Source: an uncultured Gemmatimonadales bacterium (GTDB taxonomy: Bacteria; Gemmatimonadota; Gemmatimonadetes; Palauibacterales; Palauibacteraceae). From it: 64,000 nucleotides of DNA. Positions 1 through 14,160 of the stretch are shown here, piece after piece. The stretch is from positions 864,001-928,000 of the forward strand of contig CAWANJ010000009.1 in NCBI GenBank assembly GCA_963783385.1, given 5' to 3'. Positions within the stretch are counted from its first letter, which is position 1; every line of letters starts with the position of its first letter. Under the pieces are notes generated by a model. It was given only the letters and a program-made list of their open reading frames with translations. It had not been told where the DNA came from and did not search any database. Both the position numbers and the translations under genes were made by a program.

Positions 1-786
1 TGGGGCTATCCGTACGCCTCGTCGGAGGTGGGCCCCGGACCCGCCGCCGGCACCCTGGTGGACGGGGCGCTCGGCCAGGAGGTCGCCGGGCTCGGCGGCT
101 ACGGGATGTTCAACAGCACCCTGTACGGAGCCTTCACGCTGTACCGATCGGCCCAGCAGGGAGGCCCCCAGCCGCCGGACGTGACCGCGGAGGGCGTGAT
201 CAGCGGCGTGGCGCCCTACTGGCGTGCGGCCCTCACCCACGACTGGGGCACGAACTCCTTCGAGCTCGGGACCTTCGGCCTGCACGCGCAGATGTTCCCC
301 AACGGCATCAGCGGCCTGACCAACAAGTTCACCGACGTGGCCCTGGACGCCCAGTACCAGCACATCACGGCACTGGGAGCGCTGACCGCGCACGGGGCGT
401 TCATCCACGAAAAGCAGACCCTGGACGCCACGTACCAGGCGGGTGAGTCGGACAATCCCACGAACAATCTGAATACGGTCCGGGGCGACGTCTCCTACCA
501 CTGGAACGACGCGGGCCTGGGCCTGACGCTGGGAGCCTTCTCGACCACGGGCACCACCGACGCCGGCCTGTACGGCCTCGCGGCGGTGGATGGCAGCGCC
601 ACCGGGAACCCCAAGACGAACGGCTTCATGGGCCAGATCGGCTACATGCCCTGGCTCAACACGCGCTTCGTCCTCCAGTACGTGCTGTACAACGATTTCA
701 ACGGCGGCAGCACGAACTACGACGGGTTCGGACGCTCCGCCTCCGACAACAACACGCTCTATCTGCTGAGCTGGATCATGTTTTGA
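1..786 (+). CDS. cyc2: Cyc2-like fused cytochrome c-porin, C-terminal beta-barrel portion (5' end outside window)
   Basis: Frame 1 is open from base 1 (WGYPYASSEV...). Segments GVAPYWRAALTHDWGTNSFELGTFG and YMPWLNTRFVLQYVLYNDFNG...NNTLYLLSWIMF match my recollection of Acidithiobacillus-type Cyc2 (APYVRLAYQHDWG..EVGTFG; YLPWWNTRFSLRYVVYNKFNG). It ends in an aromatic residue as OM barrels do. The heme motif is not visible. Confidence 0.75.
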   Translation, partial: WGYPYASSEVGPGPAAGTLVDGALGQEVAGLGGYGMFNSTLYGAFTLYRSAQQGGPQPPDVTAEGVISGVAPYWRAALTHDWGTNSFELGTFGLHAQMFPNGISGLTNKFTDVALDAQYQHITALGALTAHGAFIHEKQTLDATYQAGESDNPTNNLNTVRGDVSYHWNDAGLGLTLGAFSTTGTTDAGLYGLAAVDGSATGNPKTNGFMGQIGYMPWLNTRFVLQYVLYNDFNGGSTNYDGFGRSASDNNTLYLLSWIMF

Positions 787-806
787 CCGTTCACACCGCG
801 TCTCGC

Positions 807-838
807 GCCGGGCCCGACCCTTCGGGGTCGGACCCGGC
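807..838 (+). terminator. GC-rich stem-loop with C(UUCG)G tetraloop after cyc2 (terminator or stability hairpin)
   Basis: GCCGGGCCCGACCC-TTCG-GGGTCGGACCCGGC with one mismatch; no U-tract. Confidence 0.5.
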
Positions 839-1018
839 CGTGGCGTCCCCCCCACCCGGCCGCGTCCCGGTGTACACTCGCTACCCAACCCGATTGAGCG
901 GACCCCAGCGCCAACCGCTCCGCGCGGGCGCCATCCGTCGTTCGGTCGCGGATGGGTCTTCAGCGGGCCCGCCGGGTACACAAGCGCTCGGACAGCTCGA
1001 ACTCGATGGGAGGACTGG

Positions 1019-1435
1019 ATGACGAAGGTGAGACTCACGGCCATGATGACCGTCCTGTTCACCCTCGCCCTGGTCGGAGGGGCCGCCGCGCGCGAGCCGC
1101 AACCGGCGGTGGCGAGGTGGGCGACCGCCGCCGACTCCGACACGGCCGCCCAGATCACCGAGGCCATGATCAATGCGGGGCGGAAGATCTTCCACGGGCC
1201 GGGCAGCTGCTTCGCCTGCCATGGACAGAACCTCCAGGGGACCGCGATCGCCCCGCGTCTGAGCGATTCCACCTGGAAGAACGGAGACGGAAGCTACGCC
1301 GACATCGTCAAGATCATCACGAACGGCGTGCCGGGAACCGCCATGGTGTCACACCCGGGAGGCATCAGTGATCAGCAGCTCCTGAAGGTGGCAGCCTACG
1401 TGTGGGCGGTGAGCCACGGGAAGGCGAAGGACTAG
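1019..1435 (+). CDS. Periplasmic monoheme class I cytochrome c
   Basis: GGAGG RBS, Sec signal peptide, CFACH, distal Met in GVPGTAM. Confidence 0.9.
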   Translation: MTKVRLTAMMTVLFTLALVGGAAAREPQPAVARWATAADSDTAAQITEAMINAGRKIFHGPGSCFACHGQNLQGTAIAPRLSDSTWKNGDGSYADIVKIITNGVPGTAMVSHPGGISDQQLLKVAAYVWAVSHGKAKD

Positions 1436-1478
1436 GGAGGGTTCATCCCCCGGGGAGAGCTCCTCCCCCAGGTACACC

Positions 1479-1515
1479 AAGAGGCGGGCCCGCGTCGATC
1501 GCGGGCCCGCCTCTT
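1479..1515. terminator. Bidirectional terminator between convergent genes
   Basis: Perfect 16-bp inverted repeat AAGAGGCGGGCCCGCG-tcgat-CGCGGGCCCGCCTCTT. Confidence 0.75.
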
Positions 1516-1574
1516 CATGTGCTCCTGTCCGGTCGCGAGCGGGCCCCTCGCGGGAGCCCGCCCGGGGACATGGC

Positions 1575-2108
1575 TCAGTGGTTCGGTGCGCTCACGGCGG
1601 AGGGCGGCTCACCGGTGACGGCGATCGTTCCCTTCATCCCGAACGACTGGTGCGGCACGCACTCGTAGGAGTAGGTGCCCGCAGGAAAGTACGCCGGGTC
1701 GATCACCAGCTGGTACGTCGCCCCCTGGCTCACGAGGAAGGGGCTCATCTTGGGAGGCGCCCCCTTGGCGTCGAAGACGGTGCGGCTCGCCGCCATGATC
1801 GTGGGAAAGCTACGGGAGGAAAGCCGACCCCCCGAAGGCTCATTCGTGAACTCGACGTCGTGGGGCGTGTTCGTGGTGTTGACCCATCGCACCGTGTCGC
1901 CGGGCACGACCGTGACGTTCGAGGGAACGAACTTGAAGTTCTCCATCTGGATCGTGACCGTATGGGGGTGCCCGGTGTCCTGCTGGGCCGCCGCGCTCGT
2001 GGCGGTGATCGCCAGCGCGACCAGCGCGGCGCCGATCACGAGCTGGAGGGACCAGATCAGATCTATCTGTCGTCGTGACACTTTCGGTCTCCGGACTGTT
2101 CGAGTCAT
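1575..2108 (-). CDS. Plastocyanin/azurin-family type-1 blue copper protein (exported)
   Basis: Signal peptide; FVPSNVTVVPGDTVRWVN, H(DVEF) and YECVPHQSFGMKG give His/Cys/His/Met ligands. Confidence 0.9.
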   Translation of the reverse strand: MTRTVRRPKVSRRQIDLIWSLQLVIGAALVALAITATSAAAQQDTGHPHTVTIQMENFKFVPSNVTVVPGDTVRWVNTTNTPHDVEFTNEPSGGRLSSRSFPTIMAASRTVFDAKGAPPKMSPFLVSQGATYQLVIDPAYFPAGTYSYECVPHQSFGMKGTIAVTGEPPSAVSAPNH

Positions 2109-2277
2109 CCATCGCCCAGAACCATCGGTTCCGGGAGCGAACTCTCACAGCCAGAATAAAACAAAGCGCGGGCTCCTCCACCGTAGGGAATTCCCCCACG
2201 AACAGGGTGGGGCAACTCTCCATCGGGTGTGAGGGGCCCGCGCCTACATCTGTAGACCGGGTCGCGCGCCGCCTACA

Positions 2278-3096
2278 TCAGTCGGCGCCGCGGCCTCTGG
2301 CCGCGTGAGCCTTCAGGAACGACTCGATCCCGCTGAGCTGGTCCGTGGTCAGGGTGTCGACCTGCATCAAATGCATGTTCTGCTGCATGCGCGGAACGAC
2401 CTCGCTCCACTCGGACGCCGTGTGAGCCTTGGGTGAAGGCGTCTGGTGGCACACCGTGCACCGGCTGACGAAGACGGCCGCCTCCGGACCCGACGGTATC
2501 TCTCCGGCCTTCGCGACGGGTAGGGCGTTCCGCGTCAGGTAGGCCCGCAGGGAATCGATCTGCTCCCCGGTCGGCAGCGACCGGAAGGTCACGGCCGAGC
2601 GGAGCTGCTCCCCTCCGACGCGCTGCAGGAAGGGCCCGTTCACCCTGCCCTCGAGCAGGCTCATCCGCAGCTCCATGCGGCGCAGCAGGATGGGCCACTC
2701 CACCGCCGAGTGCATCTGGGGCGTCGGCAGCCAGTGGCACTGCGTGCAGTACGCCTGGAGAAGACCGGCCCCCGTGCTGTGTGGCTCCGGCAGAGCGGCG
2801 GCCGTGAAGCCCGCCGGGGGCAGGCCCGTCCCCAGCGACGCCACGGCACGCCAGCGCTGCGCCCGGCTCAGCTGAGCGAACTGCGGACCGCCCAGTTCCT
2901 CCATGAAGCTGTCGGCCCTGGCCACGATCGTTCCGTTCTGCGTCGACTGCGCGGCCTGCGGCGCGCCGCCTCGGGCGCACGCCACCAGGGCGAGCCCGGC
3001 CACGGCCAGCCCCAGCGGGAGAACCCAGCCGGATCCTCCCCTGCTCCGTCTGTGCGACGAGGCCGGGTGCTCGTCCGCCACTCCCTCGGTGCCCAT
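2278..3096 (-). CDS. Diheme cytochrome c lipoprotein
   Basis: RBS GAGGGAGG before ATG 3096; lipobox-like LALVAC; two repeated domains CTQCH..PTPQMH..EW..RM and CTVCH..PSPKAH..EW..RM. Confidence 0.85.
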   Translation of the reverse strand: MGTEGVADEHPASSHRRSRGGSGWVLPLGLAVAGLALVACARGGAPQAAQSTQNGTIVARADSFMEELGGPQFAQLSRAQRWRAVASLGTGLPPAGFTAAALPEPHSTGAGLLQAYCTQCHWLPTPQMHSAVEWPILLRRMELRMSLLEGRVNGPFLQRVGGEQLRSAVTFRSLPTGEQIDSLRAYLTRNALPVAKAGEIPSGPEAAVFVSRCTVCHQTPSPKAHTASEWSEVVPRMQQNMHLMQVDTLTTDQLSGIESFLKAHAARGRGAD

Positions 3097-3313
3097 GCTG
3101 CCTCCCTCGTGCTGTGGCGCGCCCGCTCCAGCGAGCGGACGCACCCCTGTCGTCCCTTCACCCATCCTTCGAGGTCGCGGTCGCCGAGCCCACCGTCCGT
3201 CCCATCCATCCCTGTCCGGGCGGGCTCGGCGCACTTTGCGCCGCGACGGTCTCTAGAGTGCTGAGGAAGCCCGCTCGACGCAATACGTAGGAGACGAACG
3301 GGAGCCACGGCAA

Positions 3314-3364
3314 CGGAGGGGGTGGGATTCGAATCCACAAGGGCTCTCGACCGACGGTTTTCAG
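3314..3364 (-). repeat. Diverged copy of the 3' half of tRNA-Ser (distal att site)
   Basis: CGGAGGGGGTGGGATTCGAA is identical to 14077-14096; similarity continues with mismatches to GGTTTTCAG (anticodon loop). Confidence 0.85.
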
Positions 3365-3535
3365 AATGGATCGGGCGGGTTTCGCAGGACTCCGTTTGAG
3401 TCCCTTCAGGTCCGCTTGAGGCTACGTGCGTTGAACTTTCATGACCAGCCCGTTTTCACGCTCCGTCACATGCGCCGTCTACAGCCGCCTCCGTCCCCGA
3501 CAATTCTCCCAACGGTGACCTGAGCGACCTGCCCC

Positions 3536-3584
3536 GCTCGCCTCCACAGTCGTCGGTCATGGCGGCACCGAACCACAAGTCGCT
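3536..3584 (+). repeat. 49-bp perfect direct repeat, copy 1
   Basis: GCTCGCCTCCACAGTCGTCGGTCATGGCGGCACCGAACCACAAGTCGCT, identical to 13031-13079. Confidence 0.95.
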
Positions 3585-3695
3585 CCTGGAGTGTCGGGAT
3601 CGGAGCTGGCTACGCCCACTCCGTCCCGCCTACGAGAGCGACCGAGCTGTCACATTCTCAGCCGCCACGACCGTCACATTTACGACCGCCGCTGA

Positions 3696-4095
3696 CACTC
3701 CCATGACCTGCAGGTCCCGACCGGAGCCTCGCCCAAGGCGACGAAGGGACCGTCCTTCGACCTGTCGACCTGCACCAGCTCGGCCCAGTACGTGGCCGTT
3801 GATCTGGACACCCTGGATGGCACGGGGAGCGTGGCGTTTGGCATCAACACGGCCGGCCAGGTGGTGGGAGAGAGCCAGATCTCCGGCGTCGCCGCGTGGC
3901 ATGCCTTCCTGTGGCAGGACGGTACGATGCAGGACCTGGGCACCCTGGGCGGCGCATAGAGCGGGGCCGGGGGCATCACTACGGGCGGGCAGGTAGCAGG
4001 TTCGAGCCAGACCACAGACGGCGTGCCGCACGCCACCCTCTGGCCCCTGATCACTCCCGTCGAGCAGGTGGACAACCTCCCTGGGAAGCACACTG
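3696..4095 (+). pseudogene. HAF-repeat extracellular protein fragment
   Basis: [25 protein letters not shown]...[25 protein letters not shown]...HATLW; in-frame TAG at 3957-3959 and no start codon. Confidence 0.8.
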
Positions 4096-4119
4096 CTCAC
4101 GGACGCGGACGTTGTCCAC

Positions 4120-5076
4120 GTGAGCGAGAACGTGGAATCGCGCTACCTGGCCATGTTCGAGGCCCATGTCAGGAATCCCGAGCCGGGTGCGCTTCGTTTC
4201 GACGACGGGCAACTCGACCACGCGTGGGCCGTACGTAGGGGGCGACGACTCGAAGTCTGGTCCATCCCGATGCTGGCGCGGCTGATGGACACGCAGCTGG
4301 ACCAGGCCCCGGTCTATCACGAATTCGTGGAGCCGGCCGGCATGACGCATGGGGCGATCGTCACGGCCCCGGTCTCTTCCGAAGAGGCCATCCTCGGCAT
4401 GTCACATTCGCAGCCTGGCCGCACCGACTTCTGCGAGAGGAGGGCTCTCGGCCTGATGCGCCTGGTGGCACCCGCCTTCAAGGCAGAGGTCGATACGCTC
4501 CTCCGGCTGCAGCCGATCTGGAGCTCGCTGGCGCGTACCCTGGATGACCTCGCCCACGCGCTCGCCGTGTTCGATGCCGGCGGCCGGCTGCTCTAACAGA
4601 CCCGAGCCCTCCAGGTCCTGGACCGGGAGGAAGCGGCGGAAGGCACTCTCTCCGAAGAGATCCATTGCCTGGCGGCGACCGTGACGAACCGGCGGCTGCC
4701 CCCAACCCCCGACGCGGTCGTTCGGTCCGGCACGGCGACGGTGGAAGTCGAGACCCCGACGGCCAGGTACGTGCTCCGAGCCACCCGGGTGCGCGCCGGA
4801 CTGCTGTCGATAGATGTATCCGTCCTCATCAGCGTGGAGCGTCTCACCCCCCGCATGCCCGATCCGGGGACGCTGATGGAACGCTATGGGCTCACGCCGC
4901 GGCAGGCGGAGGTAGTCGTTCTGCTCGCCCGAGGTCTCTCGGACGCTGAGATCGCGGAGCGGCTCTCGATCAGCCCCCACACGGTCCACCACCACACAGA
5001 GTTGGTGTTCCTGGCGCTGGGGATCCACACCAGGAAGGGGCTGGGCCTCAAGCTCCTGGAGGACGAGGGGACCTAG
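4120..5076 (+). pseudogene. LuxR-family HTH regulator with internal stop
   Basis: ORFs 4120-4596 and 4681-5076 share a frame, split by TAA at 4594-4596; C-terminal GLTPRQAEVVVLLARGLSDAEIAERLSISPHTVHHH; appears 5'-truncated. Confidence 0.8.
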
Positions 5077-5165
5077 CTCGCCGGCGACCGTTACGGCTCA
5101 AGTATCCGCGTCACCCGGGTCCTCCACCGCCTCGGCCGAGGACCTCCAGGACACCGGCCGCTCCG

Positions 5166-5560
5166 TCAGCCATCGCACCGCGTGCAGCGGTAGCCAGGAT
5201 TCAGCTCGAAGGCGCCGGCCTCGATCCCCCCCGCCGCCTCCAGCAGCATTCCCGGCATGCGTCCGACCTGCTCTTCGCCGTGGCGGGCCACCTCGAAGGA
5301 CGTCTGCGAGGGGAGGCGGTCGAGCGTCAAGCGGCCGACGTCCCTGCCCAGCTTCTGCTCGGTCTCGGTCCCGCCCGCGGTCGTGTTGTCGATCCAGTCC
5401 ACGTAGCCCGGGAACGGTAGGCCCTCGACCTTGAAGGCGAAGCGCTCCTGGACGGCGAGCGCGAGCTCAAAGCCGTCGGCGCGCTTCCGGTGGTAGGGCT
5501 CGACCATGGCGAGGCCGTCGGCCTTCGTTACATCTCGCGACTCGCGTAGATTACCTTTGG
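5166..5560 (-). pseudogene. PD-(D/E)XK (RecB-like) nuclease remnant
   Basis: AVQERFAFKVEGLPFPGYVDWID and C-terminal FELNPGYRCTRCD; the DYKT motif is missing, suggesting an internal deletion. Confidence 0.55.
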
Positions 5561-5659
5561 TGCACGTTCCGGACTCGAGAGCCCCGGATGTCGGAGCTCA
5601 CCGCAGCGACTCGGGCATGCCCTCACCCCCTGCACCTTCTGGAAGGAGCTCCCAGCACC

Positions 5660-7012
5660 GTGCCACTTCCGACCTTTCGGTCCGTCGCCGCTCGCATGGA
5701 TGGAGTCCGCTCTCCGGTCAGACTCCGGGGCATATCGCCCGACGCCGTCGAGAGGCTGCTCGATCCTGACGACCTGTTCTGGCTCGGCTATCGGTCCGGG
5801 CCCAATGGACCTTCCCTGGACGAGCTCTGCCCGACGGTGGCCGCGGGCGATCACCGGGTCGCCGTGGACAACACGCGCGGGTACATGGACGGCCGGGACA
5901 AGGGTCTCTGGCAGGTGCATCGACACCTCAAGGATCACGAAGCCGTCTCGCTCCGAAGCCTCCTCGCTCGCCACGACCGATCGGAGCGCAGCCGCGCCCA
6001 TCACGTGCTGTGGTACAACACCTACCTGCTGCGGCCGTTCTGGGTGGGGGTTCCCGGCTCCGGCCGCATGTTCCAGATCGAGGCGACCCCCGACTCCGAC
6101 CACCGCAGGACCCAGATCGGCGCCGCCATCGAGGAGGTCGGATACAGCATCGCCGGGCTGTGCGAGGTGTGGAACGACGACGATCGAGGAGCCCTGCTGC
6201 GGGAGATACCGCATCGCGAGTCGAAGACGGGCGTCCGAACACCCACCGTGGGGAGCGGCCCCCTGGGGGTCGAGAGCCTGAAGGGCAGCGGGCTGGTCAC
6301 GCTCACCCGGGGACCGGACGACGCACGGCCGCACATCATGCGCGACGAGCACACGACGTTCAGCGATCAGGGAGAACCGTTCAGGGACACTGACGCCTAC
6401 TCGCGCAAAGGCGTGCTCCTGACCGAGATCGACCTCGGCCCGGGTCACCTCGACCTGTACACGACGCACCTCATCAGCGGGGGAGGCGTTCCCGAGACGA
6501 TCCGGGCGTCGATGTCCGGATTCCCGCTCCGACCGCTGAGAGAGATCCGGGCCCGGCAGATCCGCGAGCTCGCGGAGTTCATCGCCCGCACGCACAAGCC
6601 CGAGAACCCCGCTCTGGTGCTCGGCGACTTCAACGTCCATGCGAAGCCCGGCGATGCGGCCACGGAGTACCAGGGCCTCCTGAAGGCAATGTACGCTCTC
6701 GGGCTGCAGGACGCGTGGCTCGGTCGCGGAAGTCCGTGGGGCGACTCCTACGAGCCCGCGTCCGCGTGCGAGCGCGACGCGACGAGCGGGCCGGCCGGGC
6801 TATGCGTGGACTACCCCGAGGACCGGGGCCCGGCGGAGGAGTCGAACCGCTTCGACTACGTCTTTCTGGAGTTCCCGAGCCCCCACCACGCGTTCCAATT
6901 GGATATCGGTCGGATTCGGCGTGCATCGTTCTGGCGCGGCGGCGACGAACCGCCGCCCTACCTCTCGGATCACCTCGGGCTCGACTTCACCCTGGTCGCC
7001 AGCCCTCGGTAG
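5660..7012 (+). CDS. Endonuclease/exonuclease/phosphatase (sphingomyelinase-like) protein with N-terminal extension
   Basis: WYNTYLL, GLCEVW, YTTHL, LGDFN, RFDYVF and LSDHLG motifs; AAGGAG RBS before GTG 5660 (ORF open from 5588). Confidence 0.85.
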   Translation: MPLPTFRSVAARMDGVRSPVRLRGISPDAVERLLDPDDLFWLGYRSGPNGPSLDELCPTVAAGDHRVAVDNTRGYMDGRDKGLWQVHRHLKDHEAVSLRSLLARHDRSERSRAHHVLWYNTYLLRPFWVGVPGSGRMFQIEATPDSDHRRTQIGAAIEEVGYSIAGLCEVWNDDDRGALLREIPHRESKTGVRTPTVGSGPLGVESLKGSGLVTLTRGPDDARPHIMRDEHTTFSDQGEPFRDTDAYSRKGVLLTEIDLGPGHLDLYTTHLISGGGVPETIRASMSGFPLRPLREIRARQIRELAEFIARTHKPENPALVLGDFNVHAKPGDAATEYQGLLKAMYALGLQDAWLGRGSPWGDSYEPASACERDATSGPAGLCVDYPEDRGPAEESNRFDYVFLEFPSPHHAFQLDIGRIRRASFWRGGDEPPPYLSDHLGLDFTLVASPR

Positions 7013-7036
7013 CCGGGCGCCGCCACGTGTCGGCGT

Positions 7037-8788
7037 TCATCTCGAAAGGCTGAACTGGTCTGTGAAGTTGTTGTCGAACACGCCCAGGGCGTTGAACCGG
7101 CGGTACGCCGCCAGCCACTTGTCCAGGCGTGGGAAGGCCGCCTCGAGGTCGCTCCGGTTCATCTCGGTGTACTTGCCCAGGTGCGGCCGGACGGGGATCC
7201 GACCCTCGTCGATGAGCGCTCGCTCCATCGCCGCCAGCTCGCGCTTGGCGAGGACCATCCGCCGCTCGACTTCCGCCTCCCGGCCCGCTTCGATGAGGAT
7301 CGGAACCTCGATCATCGCGGTGAAGCGGCCCTGCGAGGCGTCCAGGTAGTGCGCGGAGGGACCCGTGAACCGGATGCCCATCGGCGTGGCGAACAGGGAG
7401 TCGCTCTGGCCGATGAACTCGAGCACCCTCCCGACGGTCTCAGCCGTCGAATTCACGGGCACCGCGAACTCGGTGGAGATGGCCCGATCGGGCGGCTCGG
7501 GAGCTTCGTCGGGGCCCGTGGTGTTCCTGAGTCTTCGGAGCGCGATGTAGCTGGCGGACGCGGTGCGCCTCTTCACGAACGGCGGGCGGTTCGCTTCGGG
7601 CTCGAAATAGTAGTTCTTGAGCTTGTTGCCGATGCCGGGTCGATGCGAGTCGGGAGCCGGATGGCCGCCGATGATGGCCCGGACGATGTCTCGCACCGTC
7701 GTCCGCCTTCTCTCGGGTGGCCAGTCGGGCCGCCACGAGTCGGGCTTGGACTCGGCGCCCGTCTCTGCGTGCCGCTTGATGAGGCACGTGACGTTGTCGA
7801 CGGGCGGATCGGCCTGCCGCTCCGCAATGTTGACCAGCACCCCCACGTGCCGGTGGTCAAGCAGGAACTCCGGCACGTCCACGTCTCCCTCGATGCGCAT
7901 CTTCGGACCAGCGAGCCGGCGCTCGAGTCCCTCCAGATCGGTGAGCTCGCTGCTCTCCTCAAGCCAGTACTCGTCGCGGACCTCAAGAGTGTAGGCGACC
8001 GCGATCCCCATGCATCCGTAGCCCACCACGACGGAGCGGAACAGATCGGTGTCCTGCAGCAGGACCATCCCGTGCCGCCCGAAGTCCCGCTCGAACCGGA
8101 CGGGATCGGTGATCCCGTGCTCGGGCTCCAGCCGCAGCGGCTGGACCACGTGTCTGCCCGTGTCGGTCGCGAGGAGGGTCACGAGTTCGACGGAGCGGAC
8201 GAAGTCGGCCATGGTGGCCAGCAGGAGACCCGTCCCGTGCGTGCCGGTGTTCACCGCTCCGGCGACCGTCTGCCCGTCGAAGGAACCCATGTTCATCAGG
8301 GCGCGGCGGGCATCGGGCAGGATGCTCCGGTTCAGCTTCTTGATGGTGGTGCCCGCCCGCACGCGGATCAGGTGCTCAGCGTCCACGCCCGGACGGATCC
8401 AACCCTCGTGAGCGAGTTTCCCCTGGAGCGCCGAGAGATCCACCCGGATGTCCCGGACGTCCGCTCCCGGGCAGGCCGCGTTGGAGTGGGAATGCCCGGA
8501 GCCCACAGCCCGGATCCGGACGCCGCGTCGCACCGCCTCCTGTAGGGCGCCGATCACCTGGGCGCGTTGCGTCGGACGGACCGTGAAGGTAGAGACGGCA
8601 TGGTCCCCCAGCCAGTTCGCCCACGCACTGACCGAGAGCTCGGGCGGATCCTCCGGAAGCGCCGCGAACTGCTCTCGAAGACCGACGGGGCGCGCTGCCT
8701 CCCCGTGCCGGCGTGCCAGGTCGTCCAGGCCCGCCGCTTCGTCGTCCTCGCCGCGGGCCCGGATCAGCGTTCGGAACGAGAGGGGCAT
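7037..8788 (-). CDS. FAD-linked oxidase, aldonolactone oxidase (GULO/ALO) family
   Basis: WANW, RAVGSGHSHS (covalent-FAD His), QTVAGAVNTGTHG, RPHLGK, GVFDN. Confidence 0.85.
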   Translation of the reverse strand: MPLSFRTLIRARGEDDEAAGLDDLARRHGEAARPVGLREQFAALPEDPPELSVSAWANWLGDHAVSTFTVRPTQRAQVIGALQEAVRRGVRIRAVGSGHSHSNAACPGADVRDIRVDLSALQGKLAHEGWIRPGVDAEHLIRVRAGTTIKKLNRSILPDARRALMNMGSFDGQTVAGAVNTGTHGTGLLLATMADFVRSVELVTLLATDTGRHVVQPLRLEPEHGITDPVRFERDFGRHGMVLLQDTDLFRSVVVGYGCMGIAVAYTLEVRDEYWLEESSELTDLEGLERRLAGPKMRIEGDVDVPEFLLDHRHVGVLVNIAERQADPPVDNVTCLIKRHAETGAESKPDSWRPDWPPERRRTTVRDIVRAIIGGHPAPDSHRPGIGNKLKNYYFEPEANRPPFVKRRTASASYIALRRLRNTTGPDEAPEPPDRAISTEFAVPVNSTAETVGRVLEFIGQSDSLFATPMGIRFTGPSAHYLDASQGRFTAMIEVPILIEAGREAEVERRMVLAKRELAAMERALIDEGRIPVRPHLGKYTEMNRSDLEAAFPRLDKWLAAYRRFNALGVFDNNFTDQFSLSR

Positions 8789-8896
8789 GCCAGTGCTCCG
8801 GCTGGAGTGGAGGCGTAATCCAAACTAGTCCGGACACTCGAGGGGCACCACGGTCGACTCGCCGGCCCCGGTGTCCACGACTCCCTCCGTGCGGAG

Positions 8897-8933
8897 GTCG
8901 GAGTTATAGTTATGGAGGCTCTTATTTTCCGAC
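8897..8933. promoter_or_regulatory. AT-rich divergent promoter region flanked by GTCGGA/TCCGAC inverted repeat
   Basis: GTCGGAgttatagttatggaggctcttatttTCCGAC between divergent genes. Confidence 0.3.
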
Positions 8934-8962
8934 AGCCTCATCCCAGGACCCCGGGGGATCCC

Positions 8963-9601
8963 ATGGCGACCGACATCGTGCTGACGCAAGACGAGGTGCA
9001 GCTCATCGGCCAGGTCTCGGGCCGGTCCAAGGAGGACGCCGAGGACACGTTCAAGCTCGATACCGTCCACGGGAACCTCCGCCTCGGAAGGGGACAGCAG
9101 GATGGCGACGTGTTCCTGGACGACGGAGAGGGCAAGAGGCGCGTGCACCTGTCGGCAGGTGAGCAGAGCCGGGACGCCAGCGTCCGTGTTCTGGTGGACG
9201 GCAGTCTCGGCAACGTGACCTTGGGCGGGGACGACGCCGACGGCGACCTCGTGATGCTCGACGGTCACGGCACGGCGACCGTCCATATCACGGCGGGCGG
9301 CGGTCCCATCCAGAGCACAGCCCGGGTCCTCCTGGACGCGGAACACGGGGTCTTCGTTCTGCGGAATCACGAAAACGACGTGATCCTGGATGTCCGCGGC
9401 AACGCGCTCAAAGTGACCACGACCGGCGGCATGGTCGTACAGGCCGGGCACACATCGACCTTCCTCGGGCCCAACGGGGCCATGGTCGTTGGCGGTGGGA
9501 AGCGGGTGGAGATCACGCCCGGAGACGTGAAGGTCCACACGGGCGACAAAACCATCTCCCTGACCGACCTCGAGGAGCGAGTCGCGGCCCTCGAAGGCTG
9601 A
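8963..9601 (+). CDS. Hypothetical protein with ~46-aa beta-rich tandem repeats and C-terminal coiled coil (spike/fibre-like)
   Basis: Repeats LDTVHGNLRLG..DGDVFLDDGEG..VHLSAG / VDGSLGNVTLG..DGDLVMLDGHG..VHITAG; ends LTDLEERVAALEG. Confidence 0.7.
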   Translation: MATDIVLTQDEVQLIGQVSGRSKEDAEDTFKLDTVHGNLRLGRGQQDGDVFLDDGEGKRRVHLSAGEQSRDASVRVLVDGSLGNVTLGGDDADGDLVMLDGHGTATVHITAGGGPIQSTARVLLDAEHGVFVLRNHENDVILDVRGNALKVTTTGGMVVQAGHTSTFLGPNGAMVVGGGKRVEITPGDVKVHTGDKTISLTDLEERVAALEG

Positions 9602-9661
9602 GGGGCTCGGCCACCTTCCCCAGATCCCGACGCTCGCCTCACTTCTCGAAGGAGACCGTCC

Positions 9662-11311
9662 GTGCGAATCGTGGCCATTGGGGACTCCGTCGTGTGGGGA
9701 CAGGGGCTCCTCCACGAAGACAAGTTCGTCCGCATCGTAGCCGATCAGCTGGGCGGGGACCTCGAGGTTCCCGGGGACTTCCTGGCCCATTCCGGCGCGG
9801 TGATCGGACCGGCGGACCCCGACGGCTGCCAGGGGGTGGACGCCCGGATCACGGATTTCACGGCGCGCGGGGAGGTGCCCTGTGACGCACCGACCGTCGT
9901 CAAACAGCTGGCGGACGTCACGGACCCGGAGAGCGTGGACCTGCTCATCCTGGACGGAGGGGCCAACGACCTCGAGTCGGGCTTCTTCATGACCCTCGTG
10001 GACCCCCTCAAGACGCTCCCCGGGTTGGAGCGAAAGATGGGGCGTGCCTTCCTCGGGGTGCCGGCTCTCATCGCCAAGGCCCGAGCTCGATGCCCGAACG
10101 CCGTGATCGTCTACACGGGCTACTACGCCGGGGTCTCCCGGGAGACCGACACGCGCGCCATCGACAAGCTAGCTTTTCTCCAGTTCATGTCCAACAACGC
10201 GGTCACGGCGCTCGCCCTCGTCGCCGCACGGAACTCGATCGTCATCAACAACCTGTTCTTCGGACACGACCAGCTCCGCCGGATCCGCAGGGCCGTGTCC
10301 GAAGCCATGTCGGACCCGGAGGTTCGGGGACCCGGCATCCTTTTCGCCCACCCCAGGTTCGCGTCCACGAACGCCCTTGGCGCCCGCGGAGGCGACGGGT
10401 GGGTCCAGCTGGTGCTGGGGACGTACATCGACGACGCCCAGTTCGACGTCCGCAAGGTAGCCTGCAGGATCCAATACGGTCCCGATGCGGATGCCCTCCT
10501 CGCGCAACTCGATAACGCGGCGCGGGACGGCCCGCCTCGTGCGGTCGGCCCCGAGCTCCTGGCCCTGCGGGAGGAGCTGCTGGGCGAGCCGTTCGAGCGA
10601 TTCACCTGCCAGATCGCGGGGAACTTCCATCCCACGGTGGAGGGGGCTCGGAAGGGCTACGCCAGGGCGGTCCTCGATGCGTTCCATTCGAATCAAACGA
10701 TCTCGGTCGGCGACCTGGCGCACGAGCTCGCACCGACCACCGGTTCGGTGCGACGAGGCCTGCGCCGGTACGGCCTCGATGGACTCGCCGATCAACAGGG
10801 CAACGTGAGCCTCCGAGACGTGAACCAGCACCTGGTGGCCGACGTGCTCATGGTGGCGGTCCAGACCGGTCACCGGGATGGTCCGTTCGGAGGCGGCGAA
10901 GGAACGGACCACGAGATCCACCTGGACCTGGGGCGCCGCTCCTGGCACCTGACGAGGGCGGCCGGGCGTAGTCGGCATCGACATCCCGTCAACGAGTTCC
11001 AGGCGAGCGAGGAGCCTCACCTGTTCACGGTGGATCCGTCATACGCTCCGGACGATGGAGCTGGGGAGGGCGAGCCCCTGAGGCTCTCGGACATCACCCG
11101 GGTCCGGATCCGAAAAGTGGTGGATCAGCCCGCCGTGTCACCCGACCTCTTCCTGGGCAACGTCATGCTCACTCTGAACGAGCGCGTCGTCATCTACGAC
11201 GCCAGCGGAGGCTCGGGCTCCGCCGACGCCATCGACAAGGCGCTGACGCATGACGATCCCACGTGGACCTCGGGCGAGCAGGATACTCCCTTGTATCCGC
11301 TTCCCGAGTAG
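9662..11311 (+). CDS. SGNH/GDSL hydrolase with C-terminal PLAT-like domain
   Basis: GDSVVWGQG, AHSGA, LDGGAND, FHP; C-terminal VQTG...EGTDHEIHLDL...NEFQ resembles PLAT/LH2; GGAG RBS. Confidence 0.8.
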   Translation: MRIVAIGDSVVWGQGLLHEDKFVRIVADQLGGDLEVPGDFLAHSGAVIGPADPDGCQGVDARITDFTARGEVPCDAPTVVKQLADVTDPESVDLLILDGGANDLESGFFMTLVDPLKTLPGLERKMGRAFLGVPALIAKARARCPNAVIVYTGYYAGVSRETDTRAIDKLAFLQFMSNNAVTALALVAARNSIVINNLFFGHDQLRRIRRAVSEAMSDPEVRGPGILFAHPRFASTNALGARGGDGWVQLVLGTYIDDAQFDVRKVACRIQYGPDADALLAQLDNAARDGPPRAVGPELLALREELLGEPFERFTCQIAGNFHPTVEGARKGYARAVLDAFHSNQTISVGDLAHELAPTTGSVRRGLRRYGLDGLADQQGNVSLRDVNQHLVADVLMVAVQTGHRDGPFGGGEGTDHEIHLDLGRRSWHLTRAAGRSRHRHPVNEFQASEEPHLFTVDPSYAPDDGAGEGEPLRLSDITRVRIRKVVDQPAVSPDLFLGNVMLTLNERVVIYDASGGSGSADAIDKALTHDDPTWTSGEQDTPLYPLPE

Positions 11312-11336
11312 CCGACCGATATAGCCGGGAGGCGAG

Positions 11337-11714
11337 ATGGCCAAGCAAACAGCCAGGGTGGGCGGCGTGCGGGTCGTGTTCCGGACCTTCGACCTGAACC
11401 TGGGCGTCTTCCGGCGCATGGGGTGTAGCGTTCACCTCAAGGGGGGGCGCCGGACGACCGGCGACATCCACCTTGTGAACACGTACTACGCATCGGTGGA
11501 CGGGGTCACCCTGGACGTGGCGACGGTCGAGAAGGAGCGCCGGGGCGTGAAGCACTGTTCCCTCGCCGACTTCTGGGTCGGTCTCTCGGCCACGGTCGAC
11601 ACGGGAGGTGACGTGTCTCCCGGCTCCGCTCCACAGGCGTCCGTGGACGGAGTCAGGACCGCCGCCATGGTCGTCGTGAACGGTGAGAGCCACAGGTTCA
11701 CGGGAGAGACCTGA
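11337..11714 (+). CDS. Hypothetical beta-rich protein
   Basis: GGAGG RBS, 125-aa ORF directly downstream of the SGNH gene. Confidence 0.65.
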   Translation: MAKQTARVGGVRVVFRTFDLNLGVFRRMGCSVHLKGGRRTTGDIHLVNTYYASVDGVTLDVATVEKERRGVKHCSLADFWVGLSATVDTGGDVSPGSAPQASVDGVRTAAMVVVNGESHRFTGET

Positions 11715-11847
11715 CCGGAATCCGGGCGTCCCTTACGGCTCCGGGCACCCTCACGGATGACCCCGGCAACCCGCACCTCCCTGACCGGGCAGCCGATCCA
11801 TCCCCGGCGGCGCGGCTCGCGATCACGACCACCATGCAGGAGGCGCC

Positions 11848-12883
11848 GTGACGTCCACGCTAGCGGAGGCGCTCCACGACATCGGCCTCGCGCCGCCCTT
11901 CAGCTGGCGCAGGACCATCACCGGCCCGCGCCCCCGCCGTCTGAGTGAGCTCATCGCCGCATGCCGCCCGCCGCGCATGGCCGATTGGACCAATCCCACC
12001 AGGTCTCGGGTCGAGAACCAGGACTACACCGAGGAAGCCAACGGTATGGTCACGGACGGATCGGCCTGGTATGTCACGAGCAACGCTGATGATCGGCGAG
12101 AGGGACTGTACAAGCTGAGTTCTGGGTTTCGACGTGCTCGGCAGGCTCGCCGCGCCGCTCGATCCGGACGATACCCATTCGGGTTCCCTGTGTGTCCGCG
12201 ACGGGCTGCTCTACGTGCCCTGCCAGCGACGCTACGGCATCTGGGTCGTCTCTTCGGATCTCCAGTCCAGCACCTTCCTAGCCATCGACCAGCTCCCCGA
12301 CGGTGACCTGTTCGCGTGGTGCGACATCCACCCCGCCAACGGGCTGATCTACACCTGCAATTTTTCCAACCCCACGCAAATGCGGGCCTACGAGATCGCC
12401 AGCACGCAGGCGGTCTACCGCCCGGAGCAAGATATCCCGATCCTCCAGCCCGGAGACGGAAAACGCACCGACCAGGTACAGTCGGCGTGCTTCACTTCGC
12501 ATCACAGGTGGTTCGCCGTCTGCGACGTCGATGGTGCCGAGCGCATCCACTGTCACACGACCCTCACCGGACGGTTCCTGGATCGCCGTACCCTGCGCGC
12601 CAGCGCCGACGAGGACACCTGGCCTCATAGTCAACCTGAGGGCCGCTGGCCACGTAACGAGCTCGAGGGCATTCGGATTCACCCACTCCAGACCACCGAC
12701 GGAACGCCCGTGGAAGTGCATGTCCTGGAGCTCAACAACGAAGTGGGCTCGCCGGACGACATCTACCTCTGGCACTTCTCCGCGCCGGACCCTTCCGCGC
12801 TGTGGGCGGCGCATTCTCAGGCCCACGGGATCATTTTCTCGAACCTGGCTCGACCCGTCGTCCGCTTGGGCCTGCTGGCGTAG
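11848..12883 (+). CDS. Hypothetical beta-propeller-like protein, frameshifted near 12129
   Basis: AGGAGG RBS; ...GLYKLSSGF continues as DVLGRLAAP... in the 12134-12883 frame after a +1 base; repeated short beta-strand motifs. Confidence 0.55.
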
Positions 12884-12894
12884 GGGACCGGGAC

Positions 12895-13033
12895 CGGCGG
12901 GCGATCGAGATTTCGACCCGCGCCTGGGCCAGGCCGAGGGCTCGGACGCGTGGCCCTTCCTCCTCGGCGACGTCGAGCGCACAGTGCGGCGCATGCCTCT
13001 CTGGAAGCTCCAGACCGTGGGGAGCCGGAAGCT
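12895..13033 (+). pseudogene. HNH-endonuclease-family internal fragment truncated at the 49-bp repeat
   Basis: LLGDVERTVRRMPLWKLQTVG resembles the MPLxKLQxxG motif I associate with the N-terminal part of a group of HNH proteins. Confidence 0.4.
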
Positions 13034-13079
13034 CGCCTCCACAGTCGTCGGTCATGGCGGCACCGAACCACAAGTCGCT
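13031..13079 (+). repeat. 49-bp perfect direct repeat, copy 2
   Basis: Identical to 3536-3584. Confidence 0.95.
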
Positions 13080-13241
13080 GGGCGGAGGGGAGCGATGGTT
13101 CGGAACCGCTTTCGCGGTCGAGACCCGCCGGGTCGCCGTACGGGCCGACGCGAGCACGGGACGTGGTGACCTAACGTGAGCTCGCGCCGATGCCGCTGCG
13201 GACGTTCGCCCCTGACGCCGGGGGAGGATCCGATCCGGAAC

Positions 13242-13301
13242 CTGGGCACCCTGAGCCATAAGGTGGCGATCCTGGCGCAGACGCCGGTCCTCCTCATCTG
13301 A
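13242..13301 (+). pseudogene. Universal stress protein C-terminal remnant
   Basis: LGTLSHKVAILAQTPVLLI* matches the USP terminal motif LGSVSxxV...PVL. Confidence 0.5.
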
Positions 13302-13354
13302 GCGGGTATGAGAAGTGCGGGGTGTGGAGAGCATCCACGGAGAGGAGGAAAGCG

Positions 13355-13720
13355 ATGGTGAGGAACGGCTTTCGCAGTCGAGACCGGTCCAAAGCGCGGA
13401 TCGGACTCCTGCTGGTGGCGGTCGCGGCGCTCGGGGCCTGCAGTTCGACCACCCAGATCGGAGACCTGCTGGCCGATCCGGGGCGATACGATGGGCGCAA
13501 GGTCCGGGTCGAGGGGGAGGTGGGCTCCTCGGTCGGGCTCCTGGGTCACGGGGCCTACCAGATCGACGACGGGACCGGCTCGCTCCCGGTGGTGAGCAAG
13601 CAGTTCGGCGTGCCGGCCCAGAGGACGCATGTCACGGTGGAGGGGATCTTCCACGCCCTGTTCACGCTGGGGTCGCGCAGCGTGGCGATCCTGGAGCAGA
13701 CGCGCAGCGTCATCCCCTGA
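13355..13720 (+). CDS. OB-fold lipoprotein
   Basis: GAGGAGG RBS; lipobox LGAC; IGDLLADPGRYDGRKVRVEGEV...YQIDDGTG. Confidence 0.8.
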   Translation: MVRNGFRSRDRSKARIGLLLVAVAALGACSSTTQIGDLLADPGRYDGRKVRVEGEVGSSVGLLGHGAYQIDDGTGSLPVVSKQFGVPAQRTHVTVEGIFHALFTLGSRSVAILEQTRSVIP

Positions 13721-13892
13721 CGACGCGACCGCTCTCCGGCCGGTCCCGCCGCCCGCTCGAGAGACTCGGGGCGTCTCGCGCGCCTTCCACTTCCGCCCGC
13801 GTGAGATACGTTTCCAGGTGGGTCCGGACGAGGCGGTGCAGGACCGTTCGTTCGGGGCGCCGGCGGCGGTACACGCCTGAACTCCCGGCCAT
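13710..13892 (-). mobile_element. IS91-family (Y2) transposase N-terminal remnant
   Basis: GVYRRRRPERTVLHRLVRTHLETYL resembles the segment preceding the Zn-binding domain of IS91/ISCR-type transposases; it is truncated. Confidence 0.6.
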
Positions 13893-14076
13893 GCCACAGG
13901 GCTCTCGGGCCTCTGCCTGAACCTCCCCCCCGTGCGCGGCCGCGATCCACCCTGGTCCGGTCTATGCCGTCGAGGATGGCTGGAGGGCGCTGGCCCGCTG
14001 TCTGCCCCGGCATTCCGAAGGGAGCTCCGTCGCCACCAGCGCGGCCGGCCGGCGCCGCCAGTCGTTGCGGTGCAAG

Positions 14077-14160
14077 CGGAGGGGGTGGGATTCGAACCCA
14101 CATGGGGCTTTCGCCCCGCCGGTTTTCAAGACCGGTGCATTGCCGTTCTGCCACCCCTCC
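14077..14160 (-). tRNA. tRNA-Ser (anticodon UGA), CCA not encoded
   Basis: GGAGGGG/CCCCTCC acceptor stem, CCGGT-CTTGAAA-ACCGG anticodon arm, long variable arm GGGGC-GAAA-GCCCC, GGTTCGAATCC T-arm, G discriminator. Confidence 0.97.

Follow-up and report, generated by a model that had tools for sequence, protein, structure and literature searches.

Genomic context of the module-bearing enzymes

The window analysed here is a 64,000-nt stretch of DNA (positions 864,001 to 928,000 of the forward strand of contig CAWANJ010000009.1, GenBank assembly GCA_963783385.1) from an uncultured Gemmatimonadales bacterium. Close to one end, it encodes an EEP-family enzyme, an FAD-linked oxidase, an SGNH hydrolase and a beta-repeat protein that we call P229. 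The three enzymes each carry a module of 40-115 residues made of three short helices and located outside their catalytic domains. This module, and its association with P229-like genes in other organisms, is the subject of this work. The initial annotation of the locus had proposed that the three enzymes and a fourth, propeller-type protein share a short Arg-rich tag addressing them to an export or packaging system, with the 8963-9601 protein (P229) as its structural carrier. The main features are the following:

3305..14160: the island overall, delimited by tRNA-Ser copies and a direct repeat
3305-3363: partial 3' copy of tRNA-Ser, one island limit
14077-14160, minus strand: intact tRNA-Ser, the other island limit
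3536-3584 and 13031-13079: perfect 49-nt direct repeat, inside the tRNA-fragment limits, enclosing about 9.4 kb
5660..7012, plus strand: EEP enzyme, 450 aa (PF03372)
5660..6001, plus strand: EEP N-terminal module (motifs at 5669-5704, 5891-5926 and 5945-5980)
7037..8788, minus strand: FAD-linked aldonolactone/alditol-type oxidase, 583 aa (PF01565, PF04030)
8654..8788, minus strand: degenerate copy of the module at the oxidase N-terminus (motifs at 8747-8782, 8699-8734 and 8654-8689)
8963..9601, plus strand: P229, beta-repeat protein (family alignment)
9662..11311, plus strand: SGNH hydrolase, module and PLAT-like beta-sandwich, 549 aa (PF13472, AlphaFold2 (AF2), Foldseek)
10700..10840, plus strand: SGNH inter-domain module (motifs at 10700-10735, 10742-10777 and 10805-10840)

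The region is a tRNA-Ser-linked island of about 10.7 kb. It lies between a partial and an intact tRNA-Ser, contains the direct repeat, and in a genome of the same genus (G003) the same flanks enclose 8.9 kb of unrelated genes; we therefore place it at a tRNA-Ser site. Reading of the open reading frames (ORFs) revealed no integrase ORF between the island limits. The GC content is about 72% over the window, and about 68% at positions 1-14000 as compared with 70-77% further downstream. The host genome measures 3.54 Mb (71% GC, 92% complete) and contains no paralogues of the island enzymes. Gene frames were backed by third-position GC content (GC3), and all four segments that the initial annotation had singled out were indeed found in supported frames.

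Three enzyme families carry a conserved module

The EEP enzyme matched PF03372 with 30.8 bits (cut-off 24.5), and its family profile recovered the Bacillus cereus sphingomyelinase 2ddr (E=1.9e-20) and beta-hemolysin (E=4.7e-16), so that by sequence it is a neutral sphingomyelinase/beta-hemolysin-like protein. Its ORF is open from an ATG at 5588; the GTG at 5660, which gives 450 aa, is supported as the start because the alignment with the homologue in locus L029 begins at residue 25 of the long ORF. The N-terminus is conserved in 7 foreign homologues. Motif 1 stands at the extreme N-terminus as M..(T/N)S(F/L/I)R.(I/V)A..MD, an insert of about 60 aa separates motifs 1 and 2, and motifs 2 and 3 precede the first catalytic strand. 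A chain of three position-specific scoring matrices (PSSMs), one for each motif and trained without the window protein, ranked the window EEP enzyme first among the 29387 ORFs of its own genome. The AF2 model, built from 8 sequences, was poor (predicted local distance difference test score, pLDDT, 60). It predicted short helices at each of the three motifs; pLDDT stayed under 50 for residues 1-19 and 37-97. A hidden Markov model (HMM) of the EEP module also gave a weak match (E=0.056) at 46620-47558 of the window (minus strand; ORF C9:910620-911558), which we took as chance.

The 9662-11311 protein is an SGNH hydrolase: it scored 33.4 bits against PF13472 (cut-off 32.9), and G7, D8, S9, G99, G100, N102, D103 and H323 are invariant in two family alignments. 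Foldseek matched its N-terminal domain to the Streptomyces phospholipase A1 4hyq (E=1.9e-5) and listed PLAT-bearing alpha-toxin and lipases for the rest of the protein; for the C-terminus, Clostridium perfringens alpha-toxin was listed at E 5e-5 to 3e-4 with whole-chain TM-scores of 0.18-0.28. A Pfam scan of the C-terminus found no PLAT match. The 8 relatives recovered by a word-indexed search all keep the whole architecture. The linker between the two domains is conserved as h-S-L-R..., S-h-R-x-x-L-x-R-Y-G-L and h-S-h-R-x-h (h, hydrophobic), the last element falling just before the C-terminal sandwich. In the AF2 model (pLDDT 77.7, predicted TM-score 0.84), a beta-sandwich follows the module, and the module itself was predicted to form helices at residues 349-356, 363-369 and 384-388, one per motif, within a block of pLDDT 79-89.

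The oxidase contains FAD_binding_4 (PF01565, E=2.1e-18) and ALO (PF04030, E=1.3e-10) domains, as expected from an aldonolactone/alditol oxidase of the VAO type. By sequence, its nearest relatives of solved structure are xylitol oxidase and GLDH, and its scores fell under the NCBIfam subfamily cut-offs. Among hundreds of relatives, 119 homologues were examined, and 56 passed a filter for the N-terminal module, whose family form is M.ISLR.L ... S(V/M)R..A...(G/N)h ... P(F/V)(S/T)hRELITPQ; at least 20 other homologues begin no more than 11 residues from the FAD domain. The copy in the window is degenerate, with S4, A25, R38 and E39 in nearly invariant columns of the family alignment, and a profile built without it ranked it second of the 29387 ORFs (E=0.61). 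In some homologues the module sits behind other domains, and two oxidase homologues (P0178 and P0209) show an RR-D-h-L motif upstream of the module. The haloarchaeal oxidases P0169, P0185, P0187 and P0189 begin with the module. At their other end, a hydrophobic 'PGFG...AAWWL' stretch precedes an acidic tail and resembles a C-terminal membrane anchor; these proteins have no N-terminal signal peptide. P0187 was not found in the four genomes harbouring loci L029, L003, L007 and L002.

The segments of the EEP enzyme, the oxidase and the SGNH protein are clear of the Pfam catalytic matches, which start at residue 168 of the 474-aa EEP ORF and at residue 69 of the oxidase (FAD_binding_4) and cover residues 5-161 of the SGNH protein. 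Their location outside the catalytic domains was thus correctly described at the outset, as were the enzyme types, namely sphingomyelinase C/beta-hemolysin-like for the EEP enzyme, phospholipase-A1-like with a PLAT-like domain for the SGNH protein and aldonolactone/alditol type for the oxidase.

Likeness of the three modules

Each helix of the module starts with a hydrophobic-Ser-hydrophobic-Arg-x-hydrophobic motif (h-S-h-R-x-h). The tag as it was originally written turned out to have nothing special about it: its literal and loose regular expressions were no commoner than in shuffled proteins. No match to the literal form turned up among 2062 approximate proteins of the genome, against a mean of 0.1 in shuffles, and the loose form matched 8 proteins (8.75 in shuffles), the sole match in the island being the oxidase. 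All-versus-all BLASTP of 10 island ORFs returned nothing under E=0.29, and a Pfam scan of seven module segments at E<=10 returned two chance-level matches only, DUF7390 (E=0.13) and pKID (E=0.27).

Profiles built from homologues gave a different result. The oxidase-module profile, constructed without SGNH or EEP sequences, aligned with the SGNH linker in hhalign over 34 columns with the three motifs in register (probability 79.9%, P=1.4e-5). When this profile was slid along the other two families, its three best-scoring windows of 42 in the SGNH family and its four best of 26 in the EEP family were the module regions. The remaining windows scored at most 11.0 (SGNH) and 10.4 (EEP), with the exception of an SGNH window at start column 520, which overlaps the start of the linker and scored 13.9; reversed controls scored about 0.5. 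Column shuffling did not reach the observed score in any of 150 trials for any of the three profile pairs: 25.5 was observed against a highest shuffle of 13.7 for oxidase versus SGNH, 20.0 against 16.8 for oxidase versus EEP, and 13.3 against 12.6 for SGNH versus EEP. MAFFT placed 60 modules of the three families in register, and a combined module HMM ranked the SGNH protein first, the oxidase 6th and the EEP enzyme 7th among the 29387 ORFs. The module is therefore conserved within each of the three families and recognisably alike between them. As for the claim that one tag is common to four proteins and kept by their homologues, it held for these three enzymes, in the form of the three-motif module, and failed for the propeller, whose N-terminal segment (11851-11961) was tried as a module and detected by no profile or module model.

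Several results weigh against a common module. The likeness of the EEP module to the oxidase and SGNH modules is local and out of register, extending over 16 and 6 columns (P=0.0012 and 0.018); such local matches fit a repeated unit, but prove less. The EEP-module HMM and the SGNH-linker HMM each matched their own family only, and the EEP-trained three-motif chain ranked the SGNH protein 332nd, the oxidase 708th and the propeller 7498th of the 29387 ORFs, off the segments initially proposed. On 18 SGNH proteins, the EEP-trained PSSM gave low scores, and its best match fell in the linker in 6 of the 18; because the motif positions had been assigned by eye, this comparison carries little weight. 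A single 'SLRELA..YGV' helix turns up in unrelated HAD-type proteins. Helix starts combining a Ser N-cap with a hydrophobic staple are generic, and the module motif reads like one of them.

These results leave some room for the view that helix starts rich in Arg, Leu and Ser merely look alike by eye in a 71%-GC genome, with no common module behind them. The uninformative regular expressions, the empty BLASTP search and the negative cross-family HMM searches are what this view predicts, and it does hold for the propeller segment. For the EEP enzyme, the oxidase and the SGNH protein, chance or convergence is already disfavoured and we consider it quite improbable, given profile-profile scores above all 150 shuffles and all other windows and a genomic link to P229, described below, that is independent of the module comparison. 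Nor is the module an artefact of GC content, because it also occurs in AT-rich Bacteroidota (loci of 34-44% GC) and in acidic haloarchaeal proteins.

P229 belongs to a family of repeat proteins

Members of the P229 family share the N-terminus MA.(S/T)DI(I/V)L..D, repeats of about 29 aa with the form G-N-h-x-h-G-G...D-G-D, and a short C-terminal heptad stretch. The word-indexed search recovered only P229 itself and one 86%-identical fragment, and no relatives were found in a first metagenome scan or in 40 relatives of the host genome. An exhaustive search of a representative library yielded 128 relatives, which rules out that P229 is an orphan. Some of the relatives end in Peptidase_S74 (P0018, L085 and L165) or match DUF4097, and PHROGs tail-fibre families were also matched. 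P229 itself matched no Pfam family, S74 included, and no PHROGs family, so it does not qualify as a tail fibre on these grounds. The family profile also matched 'Pizza'/PknD propeller repeats at about E=1e-7, and the ESM Atlas offered weak leads below 0.9 only.

Module-bearing enzymes are encoded beside P229-like genes

Scanning contigs with the SGNH family gave 160 loci. Of 13 foreign loci whose SGNH gene encodes the module, 11 have a P229-like gene directly upstream of it; other genes are found upstream of the SGNH gene in L082 and L113. In four Bacteroidota loci of this set, a Mur-ligase-like gene is inserted between the P229-like and SGNH genes. EEP homologues directly follow the SGNH gene in L003 (two copies), L029, L083, L007, L084 and L006; in L085 the EEP homologue is on the opposite strand. 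Among the other loci, the P229 N-terminal pattern occurred beside the SGNH gene only in L039 (Marinobacter), whose SGNH linker fits the module model weakly (E=0.014); two more matches to the pattern were spurious.

The association was also seen in archaea. Searching 301 Halobacteria with the oxidase identified 3 genomes, and the module-bearing oxidase adjoins a P229-like gene in all three; a Tat-signal FG-GAP propeller is encoded upstream in two of these loci and a Mur-ligase-like gene downstream in one. Searching the same 301 genomes with P229 identified 6, two of them new (G140 and G336). The gene order in G140 is SGNH, a 398-aa protein with an N-terminal module, then a P229-like gene. The 398-aa protein (L185 8528-9724) has no Pfam family and no PDB relative, and is a candidate fourth cargo family. 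Finally, a search with the module itself gave strong matches (E<=2e-4) in 5 of the 301 genomes, all within the 6 P229-positive ones. Another 14 Halobacteria gave weaker matches (E 7e-4 to 1e-2); the six that were read were all unrelated or spurious (ORFs of 237-247 aa that are HAD-type-like, an ORF of about 900 aa that is heavy-metal-ATPase-like by inspection, and spurious frames), and these were taken as noise. In 320 other Bacteroidota there were no matches at E<=1e-3.

Collectively, these searches showed that across several bacterial phyla, and also in Halobacteria, module proteins are encoded beside P229-like genes, and that the module is tied to these genes by several partly independent routes. 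The clustering of diverse tagged enzymes with homologues of the 8963-9601 protein, which the initial annotation had predicted, was seen for the SGNH hydrolases, the haloarchaeal oxidases and one further family.

Two further genes recur in these loci. A protein of about 580 aa is encoded upstream of the cassette in two unrelated contigs (L003 588-2324 and L082 8238-9995); it carries 'DP(L/M)W(F/Y)L.RQWQ.GEF.GEDAG(S/T)P', gave no Pfam, PHROGs or Atlas lead, and may be a further component of the cassette. The Mur-ligase-like gene (L083 6539-7612, L007 8932-10062 and L165 12312-13478, also in L084 and L006) encodes Mur_ligase_M and Mur_ligase_C domains and lacks the N-terminal domain. Bacteroidota and one haloarchaeon carry it inside the cassette, and the window lacks it; its presence may point to a ligation step that depends on ATP.

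A putative adaptor for docking onto P229-like proteins

We propose that the module could act as a dockerin-like adaptor, which would couple interchangeable lipid- or membrane-active enzymes to a P229-like protein. The cassette would then make an enzyme-loaded fibre or scaffold, and its likeliest use would be against the envelope of another cell or at the cell's own surface. The enzyme types suggest an action on lipids or envelopes: the EEP enzyme is sphingomyelinase-like, the SGNH protein lipase-like and the oxidase of the alditol/aldonolactone type. Docking of interchangeable enzymes onto the P229-like protein appears to be the likeliest mechanism, although we advance it tentatively and would put it somewhat short of an even chance. 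Structural carrier was the role first suggested for the 8963-9601 protein; its place as a conserved neighbour of module enzymes across phyla and in archaea was confirmed, and it may be their partner or carrier.

Other observations count against docking. In the SGNH protein, the module is predicted to be an internal, confidently placed inter-domain element and not a free tail, and it may be a structural linker. The fold of P229 appears unsettled from sequence, because its relatives match DUF4097 and S74 and also propeller repeats. The loci are not all independent: L143 and L055 differ so little that they count as one, and four of the five module-positive Halobacteria had supplied sequences to the module model (G291 had not). 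In G336, one of the 6 P229-positive Halobacteria, the P229-like gene has no module neighbour. A complex prediction using the P229 family alignment and residues 1-62 of the oxidase scored 0.02 with an uncertain partner fold, and is neutral on binding.

The well-ordered SGNH module, placed by AF2 between the hydrolase and the PLAT-like sandwich, raises the alternative that the module is real and has been shuffled between families, but serves only the protein it belongs to, as a lid or as an autoinhibitory or membrane-binding helical element that might, for instance, help lipid-active enzymes to settle on a bilayer; P229 would be an operon partner with a role of its own, to which nothing docks. 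Such a function would suit two of the three named carrier families, which are of lipid- or membrane-directed types, and the helices, which read from the sequence as Arg-rich and amphipathic. This alternative does not account for the presence of three or four unrelated carriers, including a soluble-type oxidase, beside P229-like genes in distant lineages, and the N-terminal module of the EEP enzyme is not packed in its model. We regard a role confined to the module's own protein as the main rival to docking and a real possibility, if on the unlikely side.

If docking is correct, the module and its partner would form a new portable protein-protein addressing pair working in both bacteria and archaea, a function could be predicted for unannotated enzymes carrying the module beside a P229-like gene, and the pair might serve as a tool for tethering cargo. 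A bolder proposal would be a horizontally mobile and undescribed tag-and-receiver pair, present in bacteria and archaea, in which the module and the P229-like protein assemble interchangeable lipases, sphingomyelinases, H2O2-forming oxidases and other enzymes into one weapon or surface organelle, possibly with its own non-Sec exit; taken as a whole, this is unlikely in our judgement. Even without docking, the module is a conserved element with no Pfam match that marks a rare, patchy cassette of lipid-active and oxidative enzymes.

Comparison with known addressing systems

The idea of a shared addressing module is already known from dockerins, markers of type VI secretion system (T6SS) cargo and encapsulin peptides. 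In cellulosomes, the dockerin is a short module of repeated segments found on many unrelated enzymes and bound by cohesins. The module described here is likewise found on unrelated enzymes, with a non-catalytic repeat protein encoded nearby as presumed receiver. Unlike dockerin-bearing proteins, it comes without a Pfam match, a cohesin or a signal peptide, its helices start with S-h-R instead of containing Ca-binding loops, and its binding is putative.

Cargo of T6SS and of extracellular contractile injection systems (eCIS) is marked by MIX, FIX and RIX domains or by PVC payload leaders. These resemble the module as non-catalytic N-terminal elements on polymorphic effectors of different enzymatic types. 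They differ in that the host genome contains no VipB/TssC or Phage_sheath_1, and in that the module also occurs in Halobacteria and is internal in the SGNH protein. In the 92%-complete genome, searches gave 0 matches to PF05943 (VipB/TssC; positive control, E. coli), 0 to PF04984 (eCIS/tailocin sheath; control positive in 3 genomes) and 0 to PF04454 (Linocin_M18; control positive in 3 genomes), the last of which stands for one encapsulin family, other encapsulin families not having been searched. The export or packaging system first envisaged thus found no support in the host genome. Encapsulin cargo-loading peptides are similar in being short peptides on unrelated enzymes beside one structural protein; by contrast, P229 is a beta-repeat protein and not of the shell type, and the module is longer, with three helices.

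A true export or loading signal of an undescribed route, or, in a variant, hitchhiker co-export with a signal-bearing partner, would agree with the N-termini of the window proteins. A crude hydropathy and motif measure, applied to the EEP enzyme, the oxidase, P229, the SGNH protein, the propeller and a 125-aa protein (P125), gave a maximum 12-residue Kyte-Doolittle mean of no more than 1.27 in the first 70 residues and no RR-x-h-h, as the initial annotation had noted in finding no evident Sec or Tat signal in its four proteins. The Tat-signal FG-GAP propeller encoded upstream of the oxidase in two of the three haloarchaeal loci and the RR-D-h-L motif of P0178 and P0209 also speak for such a signal. 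Against it stand the internal position of the module in the SGNH protein and its place behind other domains in some oxidases, the sheath and encapsulin searches above, and the lack, in the loci read, of secretion or packaging genes conserved around the cassette. We consider this explanation quite unlikely.

Branched receptor-binding proteins of phages, built with N-terminal adaptor modules and including SGNH-esterase tailspikes, offer a further parallel, in that enzymes, SGNH hydrolases among them, are anchored to a fibre. The Peptidase_S74 ends and PHROGs tail-fibre matches of some P229 relatives extend this likeness to phage fibres. Differences are that neither the island nor the foreign loci read contain another phage gene, that P229 in the window lacks S74, and that the enzymes are not themselves fibres. 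At the level of the motif, the second helix of the oxidase and SGNH modules, S-h-R-x-x-(A/L)-x-(R/E)-(R/Y)-G-h, recalls the SAP/HeH helix-turn motif h-R-x-x-L-x-x-R-G-L, but no SAP or HeH Pfam match was obtained even at E<=10. Literature listings and the openings of abstracts, a body of text that leaves out subscription journals and preprint supplements, contained no account of such a module or cassette. Overall, the observation that had drawn attention to this locus was partly confirmed and its interpretation partly supported.

Other features of the island

The remaining genes between the island limits are the following:

4120-4596 and 4681-5076: LuxR-type regulator in two same-frame pieces (GC3)
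5166-5507, minus strand: 113-aa gene (GC3 0.91-0.97)
11337..11714, plus strand: 125-aa ORF, P125 (coding-type GC3 signal)
11848..12883, plus strand: 'propeller' gene in two frames (three-frame translation, GC3 switch)

A search of 400 other genomes from the phylum did not recover the propeller gene. Its frame changes near 12118-12125, between '...LYKLSSGF' and 'DVLGRLAAPL...', as judged by three-frame translation and the switch in GC3, and it is either a frameshifted pseudogene or the product of an assembly error. P125 had no match in Pfam, NCBIfam, PADLOC or PHROGs. More generally, scans with PADLOC, NCBIfam and PHROGs gave no match for the island proteins of no known family, and no defence family.

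The two pieces of the LuxR-type regulator (4120-5076) are split by a stop codon at 4594-4596 and a further 84 nt, and the GerE helix-turn-helix is found only in the second piece; this may be a split or broken gene. The 113-aa gene had no match in the family scan and has a 47%-identical paralogue on the same contig (C9:32282-32698). At positions 3700-3950, the end of a coding stretch resembles an HAF-type extracellular repeat and lacks a proper start, so that a gene remnant at the edge of the island is the probable explanation. A 34-nt stretch that is 79% alike to part of this region recurs at 13223-13256.

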